Shown here: one piece after another, positions 3,488 to 21,900 of the stretch
Numbering within the stretch: the stretch's first letter is position 1
Layout of the letters: every line of letters starts with the position of its first letter
Origin: Escherichia coli
GTDB lineage: Bacteria; Pseudomonadota; Gammaproteobacteria; Enterobacterales; Enterobacteriaceae
NCBI RefSeq assembly: GCF_003334355.1
Contig: NZ_QOWP01000017.1
Length of the DNA: 64,000 nt
Direction: 5' to 3' (one strand)
The notes under the pieces: generated by a model
The model's input: the letters and a program-made list of their open reading frames with translations, nothing else
What the model was told of the DNA's origin: nothing
The model's database searches: none
Made by a program: the position numbers and the translations under genes

Positions 3488-4108
3488 TTATTTTTTCGCC
3501 GCGAAACGTGCCGCTGCTTCATCCCAGTTCACCACGTTCCAGAACTCTTTGATGTAGTCCGGACGGCGGTTCTGGAATTTCAGGTAGTAAGCATGTTCCC
3601 ACACATCCAGGCCCAGAATCGGGAAGCCGGAAGCGCCAGAAATAGCTTCACCCATCAGCGGAGAATCCTGGTTAGCAGTAGAAACCACCGCCAGTTTATC
3701 GCCTTTCAGCACCAGCCATGCCCAGCCGGAACCAAAGCGGGAAGCTGCCGCTTTTTCAAATTCTGCTTTGAAGTTATCAACGGAGCCGAAGTCACGTTCG
3801 ATAGCCGCTTTCAGGTCACCCTGCAGGGTGGTGCCTTTTTTCAGACCTTTCCAGAACAGGCTGTGGTTAGCGTGACCGCCAGCGTTGTTGCGCAGTACGG
3901 TTTTCTTGTCTGCTGGCAGCTGGTCCAGTTTGGTGATCAGCTCTTCAACCGGCAGGTTGGCAAATTCTGGCAGGCTTTCCAGCGCCGCGTTGGCGTTGTT
4001 TACGTAGGTCTGATGGTGTTTGGTGTGGTGGATTTCCATGGTCTGCTCATCGAAGTGCGGTTCCAGGGCATCGTAAGCATACGGCAGGGATGGCAGGGTA
4101 TAGCTCAT
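3488..4108 (-). CDS. sodA: Manganese superoxide dismutase
   Basis: 206 aa from [20 protein letters not shown]...; classic Mn/Fe-SOD sequence with metal ligands in DVWEHAYY. Confidence 0.95.
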
Positions 4109-10200: not shown

Positions 10201-10424
10201 GCCGGATGCGGCGCGAGCGCCTTATCCGGCCTACGGGTCGGCAACAGTTGTAGGCCTGATAAGACGCGACAGCGTCGCATCAGGCATTGATTGCCGGATG
10301 CGGCACAAGTGCCTTATCCGGCCTACAGGTCGGCAATAGTTGTAGGCCTGATAAGACGCGACAGCGTCGCATCAGGCATTGATTGCCGGATGCGGCGCGA
10401 GCGCCTTATCCGGCCTACGGGTCG
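10201..10424. repeat. BIME cluster: about 2.4 tandem copies of a 92-bp unit, each holding two inverted REP palindromes
   Basis: Unit gccggatgcggcgcgagcgccttatccggcctacgggtcggcaacagttgtaggcctgataagacgcgacagcgtcgcatcaggcattgatt begins at 10201, 10293 and 10385. Confidence 0.9.
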
Positions 10425-10461
10425 TGCATCCGACAACACCGAATTTACAGGAACACAGAAC

Positions 10462-11286
10462 ATGCAAAACATTACTCAGTCCTGGTTTGTCCAGGGAATG
10501 ATCAAAGCCACCACCGACGCCTGGCTGAAAGGCTGGGATGAGCGCAACGGCGGCAACCTGACGCTACGCCTGGATGACGCCGATATCGCACCATATCACG
10601 ACAATTTCCACCAACAACCGCGCTATATCCCGCTCAGCCAGCCCATGCCTTTACTGGCAAATACACCGTTTATTGTCACCGGCTCGGGCAAATTCTTCCG
10701 TAACGTCCAGCTTGATCCTGCGGCTAACTTAGGCATCGTAAAAGTCGACAGCGACGGCGCGGGCTACCACATTCTTTGGGGGTTAACCAACGAAGCCGTC
10801 CCCACTTCCGAACTTCCGGCTCACTTCCTTTCCCACTGCGAGCGCATTAAAGCCACCAACGGCAAAGATCGGGTGATCATGCACTGCCACGCCACCAACC
10901 TGATCGCCCTCACCTATGTACTTGAAAACGACACCGCGGTCTTCACTCGCCAACTGTGGGAAGGCAGCACCGAGTGTCTGGTGGTATTCCCGGATGGCGT
11001 TGGCATTTTGCCGTGGATGGTGCCCGGCACGGACGAAATCGGCCAGGCGACCGCACAAGAGATGCAAAAACATTCGCTGGTGTTGTGGCCCTTCCACGGC
11101 GTCTTCGGCAGCGGACCGACGCTGGATGAAACCTTCGGTTTAATCGACACCGCAGAAAAATCAGCACAAGTATTAGTGAAGGTTTATTCGATGGGCGGCA
11201 TGAAACAGACCATCAGCCGTGAAGAGTTGATAGCGCTCGGCAAGCGTTTCGGCGTTACGCCACTCGCCAGTGCGCTGGCGCTGTAA
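10462..11286 (+). CDS. rhaD: Rhamnulose-1-phosphate aldolase
   Basis: 274 aa from [37 protein letters not shown]...; the longer track ORF starting at 10291 is an artefact running through the REP cluster. Confidence 0.95.
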
Positions 11287-11295
11287 GGAGCAAAC

Positions 11296-11610
11296 ATGAT
11301 CCGCAAAGCCTTTGTCATGCAGGTAAACCCCGACGCCCACGAAGAGTATCAGCGTCGGCATAATCCCATCTGGCCAGAACTGGAAGCAGTGCTGAAATCT
11401 CACGGTGCGCATAACTACGCCATCTATCTCGACAAAGCGCGTAATCTGCTGTTTGCCATGGTAGAGATTGAATCTGAAGAACGCTGGAATGCGGTTGCCA
11501 GCACTGATGTTTGCCAACGTTGGTGGAAATATATGACCGATGTTATGCCCGCTAACCCGGATAACAGCCCGGTGAGTCGCGAGCTGCAAGAAGTGTTTTA
11601 CCTGCCGTAA
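11296..11610 (+). CDS. rhaM: L-rhamnose mutarotase
   Basis: 104-aa ORF immediately after rhaD, matches RhaM (YiiL). Confidence 0.9.
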
Positions 11611-11618
11611 TTGCCCAA

Positions 11619-11650
11619 TGTGCCAGAGATGCCTCCGGCACAATATTTTA
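11619..11650 (+). terminator. Hairpin plus T-rich tail after rhaM
   Basis: tgtgccagagatgcctccggcaca (10-bp stem with one mismatch) followed by atatttta. Confidence 0.45.
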
Positions 11651-11910
11651 AATTTCGATTTGAAAAATTAAACATATTACATCTCCCGGTAAGTTATATT
11701 TCCCTGATACATTGTGAGTAAATCACAAAAATAATGAATAACCCATTAATGATTCATGTGGTTTATTTAAATAACCATTATGTGCATTACTCCGCAAATC
11801 TGACCTTTCACTCTGTCTCAAATTGTCATTGTTTACCGACATATCGCCTCTCATCACTTAATCGCTCCACCATTACAATTGATTAAAATATATTTTATGG
11901 AGTCCGATTA

Positions 11911-12357
11911 ATGGCAGCTCTTACTGCAAGCTGTATTGACCTGAATATTCAGGGCAATGGCGCTTATTCCGTTCTGAAGCAGTTGGCGACAATAGCGTTA
12001 CAAAACGGTTTTATCACCGACTCACACCAGTTCCTGCAAACCCTGCTGCTGCGCGAAAAAATGCACTCTACTGGATTTGGTTCCGGTGTCGCCGTGCCGC
12101 ACGGTAAAAGCGCCTGCGTTAAACAACCGTTCGTATTATTCGCCCGCAAAGCGCAGGCTATTGACTGGAAAGCCAGCGATGGCGAAGACGTCAATTGCTG
12201 GATCTGCCTCGGCGTGCCGCAAAGCGGCGAAGAGGATCAGGTCAAAATCATCGGCACACTGTGTCGCAAAATTATTCACAAGGAATTTATTCATCAACTG
12301 CAACAGGGCGATACCGACCAGGTGCTTGCCTTGTTAAATCAAACCCTCAGCTCATAA
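11911..12357 (+). CDS. frvA: PTS fructose-like EIIA component
   Basis: 148-aa ORF with the PTS EIIA(Fru/Mtl) active-site region GVAVPHGK. Confidence 0.85.
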   Translation: MAALTASCIDLNIQGNGAYSVLKQLATIALQNGFITDSHQFLQTLLLREKMHSTGFGSGVAVPHGKSACVKQPFVLFARKAQAIDWKASDGEDVNCWICLGVPQSGEEDQVKIIGTLCRKIIHKEFIHQLQQGDTDQVLALLNQTLSS

Positions 12358-12367
12358 GGAAGTGGCG

Positions 12368-13819
12368 ATGGAGTCATCCTTACGTATTGTCGCGATCACC
12401 AACTGCCCCGCCGGGATCGCTCACACCTACATGGTGGCGGAAGCCCTGGAACAGAAAGCCCGTTCTCTCGGTCATACCATAAAAGTGGAAACTCAAGGGT
12501 CCAGTGGCGTTGAAAACCGCTTATCCAGCGAAGAGATTGCCGCTGCCGATTACGTCATTCTCGCTACCGGGCGTGGCCTGAGCGGTGATGATCGCGCGCG
12601 GTTTGCCGGGAAGAAAGTTTATGAGATTGCCATCTCCCAGGCGTTGAAAAATATCGACCAGATTTTCAGCGAATTACCGACAAACTCGCAGCTTTTTGCC
12701 GCAGATAGCGGCGTGAAGCTTGGCAAACAGGAAGTGCAAAGCGGTAGCGTGATGAGCCACCTGATGGCGGGCGTCTCTGCGGCGCTGCCGTTTGTCATCG
12801 GCGGTGGTATCCTGGTGGCGCTTGCCAACATGCTGGTGCAGTTCGGTTTGCCGTATACCGATATGTCGAAAGGCGCGCCGTCGTTTACCTGGGTAGTTGA
12901 ATCCATCGGTTACCTTGGCTTCACCTTTATGATCCCCATCATGGGCGCTTATATTGCCTCGTCGATTGCCGATAAACCGGCTTTCGCTCCGGCGTTTCTG
13001 GTTTGCTATCTGGCGAACGACAAAGCGCTGCTCGGCACCCAGTCGGGTGCGGGATTCCTCGGCGCGGTGGTGCTGGGGCTGGCGATTGGCTATTTCGTCT
13101 TCTGGTTCCGCAAAGTGCGCCTTGGCAAAGCATTACAACCGCTGCTCGGTTCAATGCTGATCCCGTTCGTTACTCTGCTGGTTTTCGGCGTGCTCACTTA
13201 CTACGTTATCGGGCCGGTGATGTCCGACCTCATGGGCGGGCTGCTCCACTTCCTGAATACCATTCCTCCATCAATGAAGTTTGCGGCAGCGTTTCTGGTC
13301 GGTGCGATGCTGGCGTTCGATATGGGCGGCCCCATCAATAAAACCGCCTGGTTCTTCTGCTTCTCACTGCTGGAAAAACACATTTATGACTGGTACGCCA
13401 TCGTCGGCGTTGTCGCGCTGATGCCGCCCGTCGCGGCGGGTCTTGCGACGTTCATTGCGCCCAAACTGTTTACCCGACAGGAAAAAGAGGCTGCCAGTAG
13501 TGCCATTGTGGTCGGTGCCACAGTCGCAACCGAACCGGCTATTCCTTACGCTCTGGCAGCTCCGTTGCCGATGATTACCGCCAATACGCTGGCGGGCGGC
13601 ATTACCGGCGTGCTGGTGATCGCTTTCGGAATCAAACGTCTGGCACCTGGTTTGGGTATCTTTGACCCGCTGATCGGCCTGATGTCGCCGGTGGGTTCGT
13701 TTTATCTGGTGCTGGCGATTGGCCTCGCGCTGAACATTTCATTCATTATCGTCCTGAAAGGATTGTGGTTACGCCGCAAAGCGAAAGCCGCGCAACAGGA
13801 GCTTGTCCATGAACATTGA
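12368..13819 (+). CDS. frvB: PTS fructose-like EIIBC component
   Basis: 483 aa from MESSLRIVAITNCPAGIAHTYM... (EIIB cysteine motif) followed by a polytopic EIIC domain. Confidence 0.85.
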   Translation: MESSLRIVAITNCPAGIAHTYMVAEALEQKARSLGHTIKVETQGSSGVENRLSSEEIAAADYVILATGRGLSGDDRARFAGKKVYEIAISQALKNIDQIFSELPTNSQLFAADSGVKLGKQEVQSGSVMSHLMAGVSAALPFVIGGGILVALANMLVQFGLPYTDMSKGAPSFTWVVESIGYLGFTFMIPIMGAYIASSIADKPAFAPAFLVCYLANDKALLGTQSGAGFLGAVVLGLAIGYFVFWFRKVRLGKALQPLLGSMLIPFVTLLVFGVLTYYVIGPVMSDLMGGLLHFLNTIPPSMKFAAAFLVGAMLAFDMGGPINKTAWFFCFSLLEKHIYDWYAIVGVVALMPPVAAGLATFIAPKLFTRQEKEAASSAIVVGATVATEPAIPYALAAPLPMITANTLAGGITGVLVIAFGIKRLAPGLGIFDPLIGLMSPVGSFYLVLAIGLALNISFIIVLKGLWLRRKAKAAQQELVHEH

Positions 13820-14879
13820 GTTACTGCAACAGTTGTGCGAAGCCAGCGCCGTCAGCGGCGATGAACAGGAAGTTCGCGACATTCTGATAAACACGCTGGA
13901 ACCTTGCGTGAATGAAATCACCTTCGATGGTCTGGGCAGCTTTGTTGCCCGTAAGGGGAATAAAGGTCCAAAAGTTGCCGTTGTCGGACATATGGATGAA
14001 GTCGGCTTTATGGTCACCCACATCGACGAGAGCGGTTTTCTGCGTTTTACCACCATTGGCGGCTGGTGGAATCAGTCGATGCTCAACCACCGGGTAACCA
14101 TACGCACACACAAGGGAGTGAAAATCCCTGGTGTGATTGGTTCCGTCGCGCCTCATGCGTTAACGGAAAAGCAAAAGCAACAACCGCTGTCATTTGATGA
14201 GATGTTCATTGATATTGGCGCGAACAGTCGCGAAGAGGTGGAAAAGCGCGGCGTGGAAATTGGTAATTTTATTAGCCCGGAAGCCAATTTTGCCTGCTGG
14301 GGCGAAGATAAAGTGGTCGGCAAGGCGTTGGATAACCGCATCGGCTGCGCAATGATGGCTGAACTATTGCAGACGGTGAATAATCCCGAAATTACGCTGT
14401 ATGGCGTTGGCAGTGTGGAAGAAGAAGTTGGGCTACGCGGGGCGCAAACCTCGGCGGAACACATTAAACCGGACGTCGTGATCGTGTTGGATACCGCCGT
14501 AGCGGGCGATGTTCCGGGCATTGATAACATTAAATACCCGCTGAAACTGGGCCAGGGGCCGGGGCTGATGCTGTTTGACAAGCGCTACTTCCCCAACCAG
14601 AAACTGGTAGCAGCGTTAAAAAGCTGTGCCGCACATAACGATTTACCGCTGCAATTTTCCACCATGAAAACCGGTGCGACGGATGGCGGGCGCTACAACG
14701 TGATGGGCGGCGGGCGTCCGGTTGTCGCGCTGTGTCTGCCAACTCGTTATCTGCACGCCAACAGCGGTATGATTTCAAAAGCCGATTACGAAGCTCTGCT
14801 CACGCTGATACGGGGTTTTCTGACGACCTTAACTGCGGAGAAAGTCAACGCGTTTAGCCAGTTCCGTCAGGTGGATTAA
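13809..14879 (+). CDS. frvX: M42-family aminopeptidase/cellulase-like protein
   Basis: 356 aa from MNIELLQQLCEASAVSGDE...; overlaps the frvB 3' end. Confidence 0.85.
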   Translation: MNIELLQQLCEASAVSGDEQEVRDILINTLEPCVNEITFDGLGSFVARKGNKGPKVAVVGHMDEVGFMVTHIDESGFLRFTTIGGWWNQSMLNHRVTIRTHKGVKIPGVIGSVAPHALTEKQKQQPLSFDEMFIDIGANSREEVEKRGVEIGNFISPEANFACWGEDKVVGKALDNRIGCAMMAELLQTVNNPEITLYGVGSVEEEVGLRGAQTSAEHIKPDVVIVLDTAVAGDVPGIDNIKYPLKLGQGPGLMLFDKRYFPNQKLVAALKSCAAHNDLPLQFSTMKTGATDGGRYNVMGGGRPVVALCLPTRYLHANSGMISKADYEALLTLIRGFLTTLTAEKVNAFSQFRQVD

Positions 14880-16627
14880 TGCTAAACGAACGCCAGTTAA
14901 AGATTGTCGATCTGCTGGAGCAACAGCCGCGCACGCCTGGCGAGCTGGCGCAACAGACTGGCGTTTCAGGCAGGACCATCCTGCGTGATATTGACTATCT
15001 CAACTTCACCCTTAACGGCAAAGCCCGCATTTTCGCCAGTGGCAGTGCGGGCTATCAGCTGGAAATCTTCGAGCGCCGCAGCTTTTTTCAGTTGCTGCAA
15101 AAGCACGATAACGACGATCGGCTGCTGGCGCTGTTATTACTGAATACTTTCACTCCCCGAGCGCAACTCGCCTCGGCGCTTAATTTGCCAGAAACGTGGG
15201 TAGCAGAGCGTCTGCCCCGGTTAAAACAGCGTTATGAACGCACTTGTTGCCTGGCCAGCCGCCCTGGTTTGGGCCATTTCATTGATGAGACAGAAGAGAA
15301 ACGCGTTATCTTGCTGGCGAACTTGCTGCGCAAAGATCCGTTTTTAATTCCGCTGGCGGGCATAACACGAGACAACCTTCAGCATTTATCCACGGCCTGC
15401 GACAACCAACACCGCTGGCCGCTCATGCAGGGTGATTATCTCTCCAGCCTGATTCTGGCGATTTACGCCCTGCGTAATCAACTGACCGATGAGTGGCCGC
15501 AATATCCCGGTGACGAGATAAAACAAATCGTTGAACATAGCGGTCTGTTTCTTGGTGATAACGCTGTAAGAACCCTGACGGGTTTGATAGAGAAACAGCA
15601 TCAGCAAGCGCAGGTAATTTCAGCCGATAATGTGCAGGGGTTGCTGCAAAGGGTGCCGGGCATCGCGTCATTGAATATTATTGATGCGCAGCTGGTTGAG
15701 AATATTACCGGGCATTTATTACGTTGCCTTGCCGCACCAGTGTGGATTGCTGAGCACCGCCAGAGCAGCATGAATAACCTGAAAGCCGCCTGGCCTGCGG
15801 CCTTTGATATGAGTCTGCACTTTATTACGCTACTGCGTGAACAGCTCGATATTCCCCTTTTCGACAGCGATCTGATCGGTTTGTATTTTGCCTGTGCGCT
15901 GGAGCGGCATCAAAACGAACGCCAGCCGATCATTTTGCTCTCGGACCAGAACGCGATTGCCACTATTAATCAGCTCGCCATTGAGCGCGATGTTTTAAAT
16001 TGTCGGGTAATTATTGCCCGTAGCTTAAGCGAACTTGTTGCCATTCGCGAAGAGATTGAGCCGTTATTGATCATTAACAACAGCCATTATTTACTGGATG
16101 ACGCGGTAAATAATTACATCACCGTAAAAAATATCATTACGGCTGCCGGTATCGAACAAATAAAACATTTTCTGGCGACGGCATTTATTCGCCAACAGCC
16201 GGAGCGTTTTTTCTCTGCCCCCGGAAGTTTTCATTATTCGAATGTACGCGGTGAAAGCTGGCAACATATTACCCGGCAAATTTGTGCGCAATTAGTCGCA
16301 CAACACCATATTACCGCCGATGAAGCACAACGCATCATCGCCCGCGAAGGCGAAGGTGAAAACCTGATTGTTAATCGCCTCGCCATCCCACATTGCTGGA
16401 GCGAACAGGAGCGACGTTTTCGTGGATTTTTTATTACCCTCGCCCAACCAGTTGAGGTGAATAACGAAGTCATTAACCATGTCTTGATCGCCTGCGCCGC
16501 CGCCGATGCGCGTCATGAGCTAAAAATATTTAGCTATCTGGCAAGCATATTGTGTCAGCATCCGGCGGAGATTATTGCCGGGTTAACAGGATATGAGGCA
16601 TTTATGGAGTTACTTCACAAGGGGTGA
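14879..16627 (+). CDS. frvR: frv operon transcriptional regulator (HTH plus PRD/EIIA-like domains)
   Basis: 582-aa ORF whose ATG overlaps the frvX stop. Confidence 0.85.
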   Translation: MLNERQLKIVDLLEQQPRTPGELAQQTGVSGRTILRDIDYLNFTLNGKARIFASGSAGYQLEIFERRSFFQLLQKHDNDDRLLALLLLNTFTPRAQLASALNLPETWVAERLPRLKQRYERTCCLASRPGLGHFIDETEEKRVILLANLLRKDPFLIPLAGITRDNLQHLSTACDNQHRWPLMQGDYLSSLILAIYALRNQLTDEWPQYPGDEIKQIVEHSGLFLGDNAVRTLTGLIEKQHQQAQVISADNVQGLLQRVPGIASLNIIDAQLVENITGHLLRCLAAPVWIAEHRQSSMNNLKAAWPAAFDMSLHFITLLREQLDIPLFDSDLIGLYFACALERHQNERQPIILLSDQNAIATINQLAIERDVLNCRVIIARSLSELVAIREEIEPLLIINNSHYLLDDAVNNYITVKNIITAAGIEQIKHFLATAFIRQQPERFFSAPGSFHYSNVRGESWQHITRQICAQLVAQHHITADEAQRIIAREGEGENLIVNRLAIPHCWSEQERRFRGFFITLAQPVEVNNEVINHVLIACAAADARHELKIFSYLASILCQHPAEIIAGLTGYEAFMELLHKG

Positions 16628-16630
16628 ACT

Positions 16631-16655
16631 GTGTCGGATGCGCCGCATCCGACAC
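16631..16655. terminator. Perfect palindrome between convergent frvR and yiiG, likely bidirectional terminator
   Basis: gtgtcggatgcg c cgcatccgacac, 12-bp perfect stem. Confidence 0.55.
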
Positions 16656-16676
16656 TGCATTTATCATCAAAAACGT

Positions 16677-17732
16677 TTAACGCAGGCTATTATAGTCATC
16701 AACCATTTCGTTGTACTCGCGTAATGCTCTCGGGAAAGAGTCTTCGACCATCCAGCTTGAGTTTGCGTCCTGAAGTTGCTCTTTATCCCAGTCAGAGTAC
16801 GGGACTTTATCTCTGATGCGGCGAACGTATTTTTTAGCCTCGAGTTGATACTGGCCTGCCGAATTAATAAACGAGAAATTCATGCCGCCTTTATCCGCTT
16901 CTTTGACCTGCGCCACTAGCGTTTCCAGTTCAGACACTTTCTTCATTGCCGCTTCTGCATCAAACTTATCTTGCGATATCAGGTTATTAATTTGTTTCGC
17001 TGAAATCATGACTGCCAGAGAGTAGTAGTGGAATGTTTTCCCTTCTCTTTCTTCAATATTTTTCAGTTCCGCAAGCTGACGCTTATCATTAATTTCCTGA
17101 ATCGCCGCATGATAAGATTCGGCTACAGGTTCAAAGGCTTCCAGATTTTTTAAGAATGTCTGGTGCAGCGTTTTCCCTTTCGCAAACGCATCGTCTTTAT
17201 AATTTTCCTGGGTGTAATATTTATCCATTTCGTTAATGGTATTACCCAACGCCACGGCAGCATCGATATAACTCACCGCCACGCCATCAATTGGTTGCAG
17301 CGCAGGCGTTAACGCCACAGCACTTTTTACGCCTTTTTCACACTCAGCGAGGTTGGATTCACTAATGCCGTAGATGCCATAAACAGTACGCTCTTCACCG
17401 GTAGGCCCCTGTTTAAAATCTTTCAGCCAGTCAGCATAACGCGCCAGACTGCGCTGTACCGGGATCTGTAACTTGTTGTAGCACTTGATATAGACATCCA
17501 TTTTTTCGTCGAAAACCGCTTGTTCATCGACCACCGGTTGCGCAGGTGTTTCAGGTTTAGCTTCTGCTTTTGCAACGGGAGCTTCAGTAGGTTTCGCTTC
17601 AGGAGCTGGTGCGGCAGGTTGACTATTGGCAGGCGGGAGCGTTTCTGTTTCGGCTTTTTTATCATCACAACCCGTCAGACCGAGGGACATGATGGCGACT
17701 ATAATAGCGGAAGATAATAAATTCCTTTTCAT
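16677..17732 (-). CDS. yiiG: Lipoprotein YiiG
   Basis: 351-aa ORF; signal peptide with lipobox (LGLTGC) then Pro/Ala/Glu-rich linker. Confidence 0.85.
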   Translation of the reverse strand: MKRNLLSSAIIVAIMSLGLTGCDDKKAETETLPPANSQPAAPAPEAKPTEAPVAKAEAKPETPAQPVVDEQAVFDEKMDVYIKCYNKLQIPVQRSLARYADWLKDFKQGPTGEERTVYGIYGISESNLAECEKGVKSAVALTPALQPIDGVAVSYIDAAVALGNTINEMDKYYTQENYKDDAFAKGKTLHQTFLKNLEAFEPVAESYHAAIQEINDKRQLAELKNIEEREGKTFHYYSLAVMISAKQINNLISQDKFDAEAAMKKVSELETLVAQVKEADKGGMNFSFINSAGQYQLEAKKYVRRIRDKVPYSDWDKEQLQDANSSWMVEDSFPRALREYNEMVDDYNSLR

Positions 17733-17842
17733 TTAATTGCCTTATAAATATATAGATAAGAGAGTGAACATAATAAATGAAAAAAGAAAACGCCACTACA
17801 CGCATTTTGTTTATAAATAAAATAATAAAATTCACGAAATGA

Positions 17843-17879
17843 ATAAGTCCTGCAATTTAATATATTTCGCAGGACTTAT
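17843..17879. terminator. Palindromic hairpin between fdhD and yiiG
   Basis: ataagtcctgc ... gcaggacttat, 11-bp perfect stem in an AT-rich spacer. Confidence 0.45.
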
Positions 17880-17884
17880 TTTAA

Positions 17885-18718
17885 TTAATTGCTCAAACGC
17901 TGCGGATGGGTATAAACCGTTGCCCGACCCGGTTTACAAAAACCTACCAGTGTCAGATTACAGCGCTCAGCCACTTCTACAGCAAGCGTGGTCGCGGCAG
18001 ACACCGCAAACAAAATCTCTACGCCGCACATCGCCGACTTTTGCACCATTTCATAACTGGCACGACTGGAAACCAGTACCGCACCTTGCTGCCAGCTTTC
18101 CCCTTCTTGTGACCGGCGGCCTAACAGTTTGTCCAGCGCCACATGGCGACCCACGTCTTCATGCCCGCCGACCAGTTCGCCAGATGGCAACATCCAGGCA
18201 GCGGCGTGAGTACAACCAGTCAGTTGCCCCACTGGCTGAAAATCGTTGAGATGACGTAATGCATCATCCAGTTTGTTGAGATCAAACGTCTGGGTGAACG
18301 GTAGCGGCTGCACCGGTTTTCCGATGTCATTAAGTTGCTCCACGCCGCATACGCCACAGCCCGTACGTCCCGCCAGCGCCCGGCGGCGCTCCTTCAACCC
18401 CATAAAGCGGCGGCTGGAAAGCTCAATTTGTACTTCAAGACCATTACAGGAAGGAACGACATCCATGCCGAAGATATCGCGCGGACTTTCGATAATCCCC
18501 TCGGAAAGCGAAAAACCGAGCGCAAAGTACTCAAGGTCTTTGGGCGACGCCATCATCACCACATGCGAAATGCCGTTGTAGACCAGCGCAACGGGAACTT
18601 CTTCCGCGACCTCATCTAACCGTGGGTGTTGTAAATCATCACGCCGCCATAACTCAATTTGACGAACACCTGTGATATTTGTCACATTTTCGATTTCTTT
18701 TCGCTGTGTTTTTTTCAC
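17885..18718 (-). CDS. fdhD: Formate dehydrogenase sulfurtransferase/accessory protein FdhD
   Basis: 277-aa ORF, divergent from fdoG, matches FdhD. Confidence 0.9.
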
Positions 18719-18911: not shown

Positions 18912-21900
18912 ATGCAGGTCAGCAGAAGGCAGTTCTTTAAGATCTGCGCTGGCGGTATGGCAGGCACCACGGCAGCGGCACTGGGTTTTGCACCCAGCGT
19001 AGCACTCGCGGAAACCCGGCAGTATAAACTGCTGCGCACCCGCGAAACCCGTAATACCTGCACCTATTGTTCCGTAGGCTGTGGGCTGTTGATGTACAGC
19101 CTCGGTGACGGAGCAAAAAACGCCAAAGCATCTATCTTCCATATCGAAGGCGATCCGGATCACCCGGTCAACCGCGGTGCACTTTGTCCGAAAGGCGCTG
19201 GCCTGGTGGATTTCATCCACTCCGAAAGCCGTCTGAAGTTTCCGGAATACCGTGCGCCAGGTTCTGATAAATGGCAGCAAATCAGTTGGGAAGAGGCGTT
19301 TGATCGCATCGCCAAACTGATGAAAGAAGACCGCGATGCTAACTACATTGCGCAAAACGCCGAAGGCGTGACTGTTAACCGCTGGCTCTCCACCGGGATG
19401 CTGTGTGCTTCCGCGTCGAGTAACGAAACCGGCTATTTAACGCAAAAATTCTCCCGCGCGCTGGGTATGCTCGCGGTCGACAACCAGGCGCGTGTCTGAC
19501 ACGGACCAACGGTAGCAAGTCTTGCTCCAACATTTGGTCGCGGTGCGATGACCAACCACTGGGTCGACATCAAGAACGCCAACCTCGTCGTGGTGATGGG
19601 CGGTAACGCCGCTGAAGCTCACCCGGTCGGGTTCCGCTGGGCGATGGAAGCCAAAATTCACAACGGCGCGAAGCTGATTGTGATCGATCCTCGCTTTACG
19701 CGTACGGCGGCGGTAGCTGACTACTATGCCCCTATTCGTTCCGGTACTGACATTGCTTTCCTGTCAGGCGTATTGCTGTACCTGCTGAACAATGAAAAAT
19801 TCAACCGCGAATACACCGAAGCCTATACCAACGCCAGCCTGATCGTGCGTGAGGATTACGGCTTTGAAGATGGCCTGTTCACCGGCTACGACGCGGAAAA
19901 ACGCAAGTACGATAAATCCTCCTGGACTTATGAACTGGACGAAAACGGCTTCGCCAAACGCGATACCACGCTGCAACATCCGCGCTGCGTGTGGAACTTG
20001 CTGAAACAGCACGTTTCCCGCTACACGCCAGATGTGGTTGAAAACATCTGTGGTACGCCAAAAGACGCGTTCCTGAAAGTCTGCGAATACATCGCAGAAA
20101 CCAGTGCTCACGATAAAACTGCCTCGTTCCTGTATGCCCTCGGCTGGACGCAACACTCCGTTGGTGCGCAAAACATTCGTACGATGGCGATGATCCAGCT
20201 GCTGCTCGGCAATATGGGGATGGCAGGCGGCGGCGTTAACGCCCTGCGCGGTCACTCCAATATTCAGGGGCTGACGGACCTGGGGCTGCTGTCGCAGAGC
20301 CTGCCAGGTTACATGACGCTGCCAAGCGAGAAGCAGACCGATCTGCAAACCTACCTTACCGCCAACACGCCAAAACCGCTGCTGGAAGGCCAGGTAAACT
20401 ACTGGGGCAACTACCCGAAATTCTTCGTCTCTATGATGAAGGCCTTCTTTGGTGATAAAGCGACGGCGGAAAATAGCTGGGGCTTTGACTGGTTGCCGAA
20501 GTGGGATAAAGGCTACGACGTCCTGCAATACTTCGAGATGATGAAAGAGGGCAAGGTCAATGGCTATATCTGCCAGGGCTTTAACCCTGTTGCCTCATTC
20601 CCGAACAAAAACAAAGTGATCGGTTGTCTGTCGAAACTGAAGTTCCTCGTCACCATCGACCCACTGAACACTGAAACCTCTAACTTCTGGCAGAACCACG
20701 GTGAGCTGAACGAAGTTGACTCGTCGAAGATCCAGACCGAAGTGTTCCGTCTGCCATCGACCTGCTTCGCGGAAGAGAACGGTTCTATCGTTAACTCAGG
20801 TCGCTGGTTACAGTGGCACTGGAAAGGTGCGGACGCCCCGGGGATTGCGCTGACTGACGGCGAGATCCTCTCCGGTATCTTCCTGCGCTTGCGCAAGATG
20901 TATGCCGAACAGGGTGGCGCGAACCCGGACCAGGTGCTGAACATGACATGGAACTACGCCATTCCGCATGAGCCATCTTCAGAAGAAGTGGCGATGGAGA
21001 GCAACGGTAAGGCGCTGGCCGATATTACCGATCCGGCAACCGGTGCGGTTATCGTCAAGAAAGGCCAACAACTTAGTTCGTTCGCCCAATTGCGCGATGA
21101 CGGTACAACCTCCTGTGGCTGCTGGATTTTCGCCGGTAGCTGGACGCCGGAAGGCAACCAGATGGCACGCCGTGATAACGCCGATCCGTCTGGCCTCGGT
21201 AACACGCTGGGCTGGGCATGGGCATGGCCGCTTAACCGCCGCATTCTGTATAACCGCGCCTCCGCAGATCCGCAGGGTAACCCGTGGGATCCGAAGCGTC
21301 AGTTGCTGAAATGGGACGGCACTAAGTGGACCGGCTGGGATATTCCGGACTACAGCGCAGCGCCTCCGGGTAGCGGCGTCGGGCCGTTTATCATGCAGCA
21401 GGAAGGCATGGGGCGTCTGTTTGCCCTCGATAAGATGGCGGAAGGTCCGTTCCCGGAACACTACGAGCCGTTTGAAACGCCGCTGGGAACTAACCCGCTG
21501 CATCCAAACGTTATCTCGAACCCGGCTGCACGTATCTTTAAAGACGACGCCGAAGCATTGGGTAAAGCCGATAAGTTCCCGTATGTCGGAACCACCTATC
21601 GTCTGACCGAGCACTTCCACTACTGGACCAAACACGCGCTGTTGAACGCGATTTTGCAGCCAGAGCAGTTTGTGGAAATCGGGGAGTCGCTGGCGAATAA
21701 ACTTGGCATTGCCCAGGGCGATACCGTGAAAGTCTCCTCCAACCGTGGCTATATCAAAGCCAAAGCGGTGGTGACCAAACGTATTCGCACGCTGAAAGCG
21801 AACGGCAAAGATATCGATACCATCGGTATTCCGATTCACTGGGGCTATGAAGGCGTAGCTAAAAAAGGCTTTATTGCCAATACTTTAACGCCATTCGTTG

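Follow-up and report, generated by a model that had tools for sequence, protein, structure and literature searches.

Anatomy of the Escherichia coli frvABXR phosphotransferase operon and a predicted activator-dependent promoter upstream of frvA

The frvABXR genes of Escherichia coli encode an orphan sugar phosphotransferase system (PTS). We analysed them within a 64 000-nucleotide stretch of E. coli DNA (contig NZ_QOWP01000017.1; hereafter ‘the window’), where they lie between rhaM and yiiG. In K-12 the operon comprises b3900–b3897, is annotated as a ‘fructose-like’ PTS and was first described from the genome sequence in the 1990s. The segment 11296–16900 of the window shows 100% DNA identity to the K-12 derivative J53, and was matched in 5423 of 5426 complete E. 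coli genomes; the window is K-12-like. RefSeq annotation of the identical J53 region gives the same genes, with rhaM as the upstream neighbour and the yiiG/fdhD side downstream. The locus is therefore the known K-12 locus, in the same place and with no sequence difference, and its recognition in an earlier note made from the sequence alone was correct and is not novel. To what is known of K-12 frv we add the anatomy of the upstream region, a predicted operator and promoter, a structural class for FrvR and a comparative context; from these come a regulatory model, a corrected reading of the supposed ‘leader’, a description of polymorphism in the population and a clue to the substrate. The substrate question, now some thirty years old in the best-studied of bacteria, is not solved here.

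The earlier note's assignment of the four genes as EIIA, EIIBC, M42 peptidase and regulator was confirmed by this identity to J53 and by NCBIfam equivalog models, which all four proteins match end-to-end: FrvA scores 289.9 bits against NF007389 (cut-off 151), FrvB 1034.2 bits against NF008493 (806), FrvX 843.6 bits against NF007367 (569) and FrvR 1050.4 bits against NF007366 (426). Because these full-length matches lie far over the curated cut-offs, we conclude that frvA, frvB, frvX and frvR are intact, as had been claimed. The genes were also said to be tightly overlapped, and this holds in part. The frvB and frvX genes overlap by 11 nt and frvX and frvR by 1 nt (TAATG), so the arrangement is compact, but frvA and frvB are separated by a 10 nt gap that holds a Shine–Dalgarno sequence. 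A genome scan with an FrvR alignment, limited to a single genome for each species, yielded 35 loci from about 14 enteric genera. The two overlaps recur in most of these loci, and the order frvA–frvB–frvX–frvR is unchanged in all 34 fetched loci in which the four genes were detectable; the exception, L043, keeps only frvA and a partial frvR. The features of the locus are collected in Table 1. Downstream, yiiG is convergent with frvR and is followed by fdhD, and the hairpin between the convergent genes is likely to be a bidirectional terminator that marks the end of the operon.

Table 1. Features of the frv locus in the window, and lyase genes of related operons in other loci
Feature	Position	Strand	Remarks
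rhaM (L-rhamnose mutarotase)	11296–11610	+	Open reading frame (ORF) list and RefSeq annotation of J53; stop codon marks the spacer start
DNA specific to the K-12-type allele	11612–11722		111 bp; BLAST of the window against the O55:H7 locus L001; begins with the hairpin below
Hairpin GTGCCAGAG-ATGC-CTCCGGCAC, then T-rich run to ~11656	11620–11641	+	RNA fold −14.7 kcal/mol, z = −2.67
Distal upstream region, Escherichia only	11723–11780		GC 0.224; ~65% identity between K-12-type and porin-type alleles
CRP-like box TGTGC-ATTACT-CCGCA	11781–11796		Centre 11788.5 (~−97.5); TGTG-N8-C(A/G)CA in 38 of 40 enteric upstream regions
Palindrome TGTCA-TTGTTTAC-CGACA, predicted FrvR operator	11824–11841		Centre 11832.5 (~−53.5); spans ~−63 to −45
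TCTCAT at the −35 position (enteric consensus GCTCAT)	11849–11854	+	Alignment block; placed from the −10; poor match to TTGACA
TACAAT, predicted PfrvA −10 hexamer	11874–11879	+	TA..AT conserved in the alignment
Shine–Dalgarno GGAG of frvA	11899–11902	+	Invariant in the alignment; 8 nt before ATG
frvA, PTS EIIA, fructose/mannitol type	11911–12357	+	ATG to TAA, 148 amino acids
frvB, PTS EIIBC, fructose family	12368–13819	+	ATG, 483 amino acids; alternative in-frame GTG at 12362
frvX, M42 (TET-type) metallo-aminopeptidase homologue	13809–14879	+	356 amino acids
frvR, regulator	14879–16627	+	582 amino acids
REP (repetitive extragenic palindromic)-like hairpin, 11-bp stem (GTGTCGGATGC...GCATCCGACAC)	16631–16655		RNA fold −22.4 kcal/mol, z = −2.5; between convergent frvR and yiiG
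PatB/MalY-family lyase genes, Firmicute frv-like operons	L045 6820–7995; L047 6833–7987; L046 6824–7990; L050 6772–7953; L048 7303–8472		

We then asked whether the operon bears the marks of current use. In the translations, FrvA has a phosphorylatable His64 in a VAVPH motif and FrvB has Cys13 in NCPAGIAHT, while models TIGR00848, TIGR00829 and TIGR01427, all above their cut-offs, place the two proteins in the PTS fructose family (TC 4.A.2) as EIIA, EIIB-Fru and EIIC-Fru. The best solved relative of FrvX is Bacillus subtilis YsdC (1vhe; E 1e-86); the HMDEVG (GHxDEVG), DNRIGC, EEVGLRGA, D(T/V)xxAGD and RYxH blocks, including the metal ligands, are conserved in the alignment of the two. FrvX orthologues carry PF05343, and the second-best NCBIfam match of FrvX is a paralogous aminopeptidase equivalog. 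FrvX is by this comparison an M42 metallo-aminopeptidase homologue whose activity is predicted. The PDB copy searched held no structure of E. coli FrvX, and the literature searched yielded no activity data for it. Ratios of non-synonymous to synonymous substitution (dN/dS), taken against the Escherichia, Citrobacter, Salmonella, Enterobacter and Buttiauxella copies, were 0.00–0.16 for all four genes and 0.00–0.07 for frvB, which shows zero non-synonymous changes relative to E. coli O55:H7 at a dS of 0.078. FrvB is the most conserved of the proteins (83–94% amino acid identity across Enterobacteriaceae genera, 75% in Rahnella), and FrvR the least (31–81% outside Escherichia). All four genes are under purifying selection and the operon is alive. 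The opposite proposal, that frvABXR in K-12 is a cryptic remnant without current function, could draw on a substrate that has never been found since the first description, on the deletion of frv from ∼23% of complete E. coli genomes, on frameshifted and truncated frvR variants in databases and on an insertion sequence (IS) in one strain. Nevertheless, four full-length ORFs, dN/dS values that stay low even within Escherichia, the conserved promoter elements described below, and the presence of the catalytic His and Cys residues and metal-ligand blocks make this proposal very improbable.

The 300 bp that precede frvA had been described in the earlier note as a strongly AT-rich leader consistent with silencing. 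The composition was confirmed: the GC fraction of 11611–11910 is 0.333, compared with 0.506 for the whole window. By GC it ranks among the bottom 1.1% of 300-bp windows, and there are eight AT-rich patches of this kind within the 64 kb. The description as a leader was not, because the conserved −10 hexamer predicts a 5′ untranslated region (UTR) of only about 24 nt. The spacer is instead composite, and joins a rhaM terminator hairpin and 111 bp of K-12-type DNA to a conserved promoter region. The hairpin is a plausible candidate for the intrinsic terminator of the rhaBAD–rhaM transcript; a simple terminator scan did not call it. The 111 bp stand in place of a 1723-bp segment in O55:H7 (locus L001), made up of a RafY-family porin gene and its upstream region, and show no detectable resemblance either to that segment or to the other loci fetched. 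What the spacer shares with O55:H7 is confined to the 188 bp next to frvA (11723–11910). An Rfam scan of 11200–17900 gave two sub-threshold chance matches only, and no RNA element in the spacer. We also discounted a 50-codon ORF at 11734–11886 as a gene, because it runs across the conserved DNA boxes and coding conservation is missing in other genera. The AT-rich ‘leader’ should accordingly be read neither as a regulatory leader nor as evidence of xenogeneic silencing.

In order to define the promoter, we aligned 40 distinct sequences, each covering the 200 nt that precede frvA. Most of the alignment is unconserved, and five conserved blocks stand out: TGTG-N8-C(A/G)CA, TGTCA-N8/9-(T)GACAT(A)T, GCTCAT, TA(n)AAT and GGAG. 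Distances between them are fixed, with 44.5–45 bp from the centre of the first, CRP-like box to the centre of the palindrome and 40.5 bp from the palindrome centre to the first base of TAnAAT, which itself lies 30–31 nt upstream of the ATG. From the hexamer we predict a transcription start at about 11886 (±2). Two other readings of the region were discarded: a sigma-54 reading of TGACATATTGC, in which the GG/GC spacing is 8 and not 12, and TTGTCA within the palindrome as a −35 element, which is followed by no −10 at 16–18 nt. In two loci, L032 and L040, 10 bp of the DNA that separates the CRP-like box from the palindrome are deleted (∼100–130 nt upstream of frvA); because 10 bp is one helical turn, this loss of spacing keeps the helical phase.

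The pattern TGTCA-N8/9-GACA-N32-TANNNT occurs once in the window, with 0.00 matches expected from shuffled sequence, and exactly once in each of the 35 loci, always before frvA. In 17 of 17 representative loci, drawn from two phyla, the TAnnnT hexamer begins exactly 32 nt past the proximal half-site. Beyond the Enterobacteriaceae, TGTCA-N9-TGACA precedes the EIIA gene of FrvR-linked operons in Hafnia, Rahnella, Listeria, Granulicatella and uncultured Firmicutes, for those operons whose upstream sequence was present; in two cases one half-site carries a substitution. The TGTG-N8-CACA box has a narrower range, being found in Enterobacteriaceae and, at the same spacing, in Hafnia, and absent in Rahnella and all Firmicute loci. 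Since the palindrome tracks FrvR across phyla whereas the box is limited to enterics, the palindrome is most simply read as the FrvR operator and the box as an enteric CRP site. On this pattern of occurrence we consider the palindrome likely to be the FrvR operator.

The assignment of the box requires some care. In K-12 its right half is degraded (CGCA rather than CACA), both critical C positions being retained, and only 7 of its 10 core positions agree with TGTGA-N6-TCACA; a centre near −97.5 is non-canonical for a class I site, and the literature we searched contained no CRP chromatin immunoprecipitation or footprint for frvA. These points would suit a box that serves as a second FrvR site or that belongs to another enteric factor. 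We think this unlikely, since TGTG-N8-CACA has exactly the spacing of the CRP core, with conserved A-rich flanks, the box does not resemble the TGTCA/TGACA half-sites, and it is missing from the Rahnella and Firmicute operons that retain the FrvR palindrome. To our knowledge, Firmicutes lack CRP.

We next considered what kind of protein would bind the palindrome. In FrvR, Pfam recognizes just two domains, HTH_11 at the N-terminus and PTS_EIIA_2 at the C-terminus (455–560; E 3e-13). An AlphaFold2 model (mean predicted local distance difference test score, pLDDT, 90.4; 54 homologues) resolves a helix–turn–helix (HTH) at 5–60, a second winged helix, helical bundles at about 139–245 and 249–343, an alpha/beta domain at 349–440 and an EIIA domain at 455–582. 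Foldseek searches of the PDB with this model returned MgaSpn (5way), the Enterococcus Mga-like protein EF3013 (3sqn) and AtxA (4r6i) as top matches (E 2e-10 to 2e-9 over 470–487 columns), and EIIA-Ntr and EIIA-Mtl as matches to the C-terminus. The FrvR family profile also matches AcpB and Mga, as well as the GlcT and LicT PRDs, and in some of the more distant homologues Pfam finds PRD, Mga and PTS_IIB domains. Taken together, the model and profiles lead us to infer that FrvR is an Mga/MtlR-like PRD-type regulator with a C-terminal EIIA domain and strongly diverged PRDs. A review table files FrvR among the ‘characterized’ AraC-family transcription factors (PMC4797297); that assignment is contradicted by the domain and fold results.

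Only five residues, R32, T33, H279, E490 and H505, are invariant across the 54 homologues. H279 lies on helix 270–285 of the second PRD-like bundle, the first bundle having no conserved histidine; H505 belongs to the AIPH motif of the EIIA domain. FrvR resembles MtlR, LicR and ManR, as well as Mga, AtxA and AcpB, in its HTH followed by a further winged helix, its pair of PRD-like bundles, its EIIB-like domain and its predicted operator just upstream of the −35. With the first three it also shares a C-terminal EIIA-Mtl-type domain that has the AIPH histidine. Unlike other PRD activators, it is short (582 amino acids), its PRDs fall below Pfam detection, a single PRD histidine is conserved and no EIIB-position cysteine is evident. 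It also differs from Firmicute PRD activators in occurring in Enterobacterales, where such regulators are rare and where its promoter has gained a CRP-like box. FrvR belongs to a small family: of 1.84 billion representative clusters, 195 matched at E ≤ 1e-3. Distant homologues (23–40% identity) come from Hafnia alvei, Listeria weihenstephanensis and other Listeria, Granulicatella, Enterococcus and uncultured Firmicutes, and the genome scan gave 31% identity for Rahnella FrvR.

Some database forms of FrvR depart from the full-length protein. A 448-residue ‘partial’ form (P0031, 1875 database sequences) stops exactly at contig ends (L051 3001–4344; L052 14–1357). We did not accept it as a real truncation, which this coincidence leaves undemonstrated; the recurrence suggests an assembly break after codon 448, possibly at a repeat or IS. 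Two further clusters, P0090 and P0093 (128 and 152 sequences), have frameshifted C-terminal tails.

The geometry of the promoter bears on the sign of regulation. A palindrome beside a conserved, non-consensus −35 region is an activator geometry. The symmetric palindrome also recalls those of many sugar repressors, and one might picture a classical operator from which FrvR is released on induction. We regard a repressor as quite unlikely. The palindrome ends near −45, upstream of the −35 rather than over the −35, −10 or +1, and the −35 region is conserved yet non-consensus. In both phyla the distance from the palindrome to the −10 never varies by even one nucleotide, a constraint typical of activators that must contact RNA polymerase. 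Finally, the relatives of FrvR are all activators, both those identified by structure and profile (Mga, AtxA and AcpB) and MtlR, LicR and ManR.

The AT-richness of the spacer suggests another explanation for a silent operon, in which filaments of H-NS or StpA nucleated by the spacer occlude PfrvA, and FrvR and the conserved boxes are secondary. GC falls to 0.333 over the 300 bp and to 0.224 in the distal upstream region, and this bias is specific to Escherichia, the 200 nt upstream of frvA having a GC of 0.32–0.34 compared with 0.43–0.48 in other enterics. Furthermore, one list of genes whose RNA polymerase occupancy is altered, most of them prophage or horizontally acquired, includes frvA (PMC5811629). 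However, matches to the high-affinity H-NS motif are at chance level, the frv coding region has a genome-like GC of 0.525, and part of the AT-rich stretch is filler from the allele-specific replacement. The orthologous promoters of other enterics are not AT-rich, yet retain the same activator-type architecture, and we found no H-NS binding or expression data for frv in the literature searched. We therefore rate silencing by H-NS as the primary control as improbable. The two mechanisms are compatible rather than mutually exclusive: the conserved activator-type promoter is the better explanation of silence without inducer, and H-NS may contribute in E. coli. A patch more extreme than the frv spacer, and the most AT-rich nearby, lies at 17700–17899 between yiiG and fdhD (GC 0.245).

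Our overall reading, model of regulation included, has a probability of roughly 60%: frvABXR is an intact, selectively maintained and conditionally expressed PTS module for a fructose-family substrate, regulated in an activator-dependent way. In the model that we propose, PfrvA would be a sigma-70 promoter with a −10 of TACAAT, a poor −35 and a short 5′ UTR, dependent on an FrvR dimer that binds TGTCA-N8-(T)GACA near −54 and activates transcription; in enterics, complexes of cyclic AMP and CRP would assist from the box near −98. By analogy with MtlR, LicR and ManR, phosphorylation of His279 in PRD2 by HPr∼P would be required for activity and would impose carbon-catabolite control, whereas phosphorylation of His505 in the EIIA domain by FrvA/FrvB∼P would be inhibitory and would be drained during transport of the substrate. 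FrvA and FrvB would take up and phosphorylate the substrate, from which FrvX would then cleave an aminoacyl or peptidyl moiety. Laboratory silence of the operon would on this model arise mainly from a missing inducer. The analysis thereby offers a precise predicted operator and promoter as a defined experimental target. Substitution of FrvR His279 or His505 should lock the regulator on or off, and so allow forced expression for phenotype and metabolite screens.

Several observations weigh against this model. A consensus sigma-70 scan found no promoter in the spacer; its sole promoter-like match lies within frvR, and it returned fewer matches than shuffled sequence. Because the scan called none in the spacer, the promoter is defined by phylogenetic footprinting. 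The K-12 CRP-like box is weak and lies at an unusual distance, as described above. FrvR itself has no significant Pfam PRD or Mga match, with no PRD (PF00874) match at E ≤ 10, and only 12 of the 54 aligned homologues have a Pfam PRD at E ≤ 0.001; because the Pfam model does not detect its PRDs, their assignment rests on fold and profile. The correspondence of His279 to the mapped phospho-histidines of MtlR, LicT or AtxA is putative. The EIIB-position cysteine of MtlR-type regulators is not evident past beta-strand 349–354, where the residues are LLSDQNAIAT, with no Cys; C375 is invariant among FrvR orthologues, but lies on the second strand of the 349–440 domain. The transcription start, the binding of FrvR and of CRP and the phosphorylation of FrvR are all inferred. 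FrvX could be a general aminopeptidase with no part in substrate catabolism. Lastly, because ∼23% of E. coli genomes have lost frv, the operon is dispensable in many niches.

The identity of the substrate is a separate question. The literature that we searched gave no paper defining the frv substrate or its regulation, nor any report of the target of the regulator or of H-NS or CRP data, in keeping with the earlier view of an undefined substrate and of a system that is under-characterised and, as a long-annotated locus, not new. A 2023 review still calls FrvA and FrvB putative and ‘fructose-like’ (PMC10305011), and the M42 literature cites the Frv operon only as a source of annotation (PMC3511314). 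We reasoned that the company kept by the PTS genes might be informative. In Enterobacterales, including Hafnia, the order is EIIA, EIIBC, M42 peptidase, regulator; Listeria has EIIA, EIIBC, M42 peptidase, lyase, regulator; two uncultured Firmicutes have EIIA, EIIBC, lyase, regulator; and Granulicatella has EIIA, EIIBC, regulator, lyase and an M20 peptidase, which is PepT-like. The lyase scores over the cut-off of the PatB-family C–S lyase model; among solved structures, E. coli MalY is closest to it (E 4e-105 for the Listeria operon). None of the operons examined includes a sugar-phosphate enzyme, and the accessory enzymes all have amino acids or peptides as their targets. Because these enzymes are all directed at amino acids or peptides, a sugar with an aminoacyl, peptidyl or cysteinyl moiety is a likelier substrate than a plain ketose. 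Since FrvX would remove the aminoacyl or peptidyl part, the proposed mechanism likewise points to a probable sugar–amino-acid or sugar–peptide conjugate rather than free fructose. We nevertheless put forward such a conjugate as the frv substrate with low confidence, on the basis of gene content.

Comparable pairings exist elsewhere. The other two M42 genes of E. coli, ypdE and sgcX, are also within PTS clusters. On the K-12 map, the fryABC–ypdEF and sgc operons resemble frv in placing an M42 gene in an orphan PTS operon, and differ from it in PTS components and regulators. Through the MalY-like lyase of Firmicute frv-like operons, the frv family is connected with malXY of E. coli, whose pairing is unexplained. 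In Latilactobacillus sakei LT-13, a Lac-family PTS is clustered with aminopeptidases, MalY and PRD proteins (PMC5845896). What malXY and the L. sakei cluster share with frv-type operons is a PTS permease encoded with a MalY/PatB-type pyridoxal-phosphate enzyme, aminopeptidases or both; the PTS family is Glc or Lac there and Fru in frv, and enteric frv operons have no lyase gene. A broader proposal, which we consider rather unlikely as it stands, is that frv-type operons form a cross-phylum PTS family that imports and dismantles sugar–amino-acid or sugar–peptide conjugates, possibly of S- or N-linked cysteine, under a PRD-type activator acting at TGTCA-N8/9-TGACA. We know of no PTS for which such conjugates are a substrate class. 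If the proposal were true, MalY and the PTS-linked M42 peptidases YpdE and SgcX of E. coli would belong to the same metabolism.

The locus is polymorphic within E. coli, both for the presence of the porin gene and for the presence of frv, and this matters for strain comparisons. In O55:H7 a divergently oriented gene of 464 amino acids lies between rhaM and frvA (L001 1856–3250), and encodes a RafY-family glycoporin (Pfam Porin_8; E 3e-153). The K-12-type junction occurs in about 2828 of the 5426 complete genomes and the porin segment in about 2544 (∼47%). The frv genes were present over at least 80% of the query in 4185 genomes; by subtraction, about 1350 genomes have both porin and frv and about 1200 have the porin without frv. 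In 14 of the 35 loci (Escherichia, Citrobacter, Kluyvera, Trabulsiella, Enterobacter and relatives), rhaM and frvA have the porin gene between them, in the same orientation. From this distribution across genera we conclude that the porin is old at this position and that the K-12 state is a derived loss. In an frv-less allele (E. coli TUM13754; L002 3250–3700), the deletion begins just downstream of the frvA promoter and truncates yiiG, the promoter with its perfect palindrome TGTCACGACTTCGTGACAT (3602–3620) and the porin gene both being kept.

Co-regulation of the porin by FrvR found no support: each porin–frvA intergenic region has one palindrome, always proximal to frvA, and the porin is retained in strains from which frv has been deleted. 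The chromosomal gene belongs to the same Porin_8 family as RafY, the raffinose porin of plasmid pRSD2, and differs from it in having no adjacent raf genes in E. coli; it has no FrvR palindrome of its own and is absent from the window. In Enterobacter hormaechei (L008 1–4200), genes for a LacI-family regulator, a GH36 alpha-galactosidase and a LacY-type permease adjoin azlCD–frvABXR. Because raffinose-type genes adjoin frv there, the RafY-like porin found at this site in other taxa may be what is left of a raf cluster, and not a partner of frv. In strain CH459 (H1, NZ_CM166353.1), an IS4-like ISVsa5 transposase is annotated within the frv region, and the match to our segment is split in two.

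Two minor observations concern the neighbouring DNA. Between rhaA and rhaD, at 10291–10541, two short ORFs have near-identical translations, which indicates tandemly repeated DNA resembling REP sequences or bacterial interspersed mosaic elements (BIMEs). Downstream of fdhD, the gene for the large subunit of formate dehydrogenase was called as two ORFs of 195 and 804 amino acids in Citrobacter (L004 12174–15224), and the corresponding ORF of the window, 18912–19499, ends at 19499; the split presumably reflects an in-frame selenocysteine UGA, as known for fdoG.

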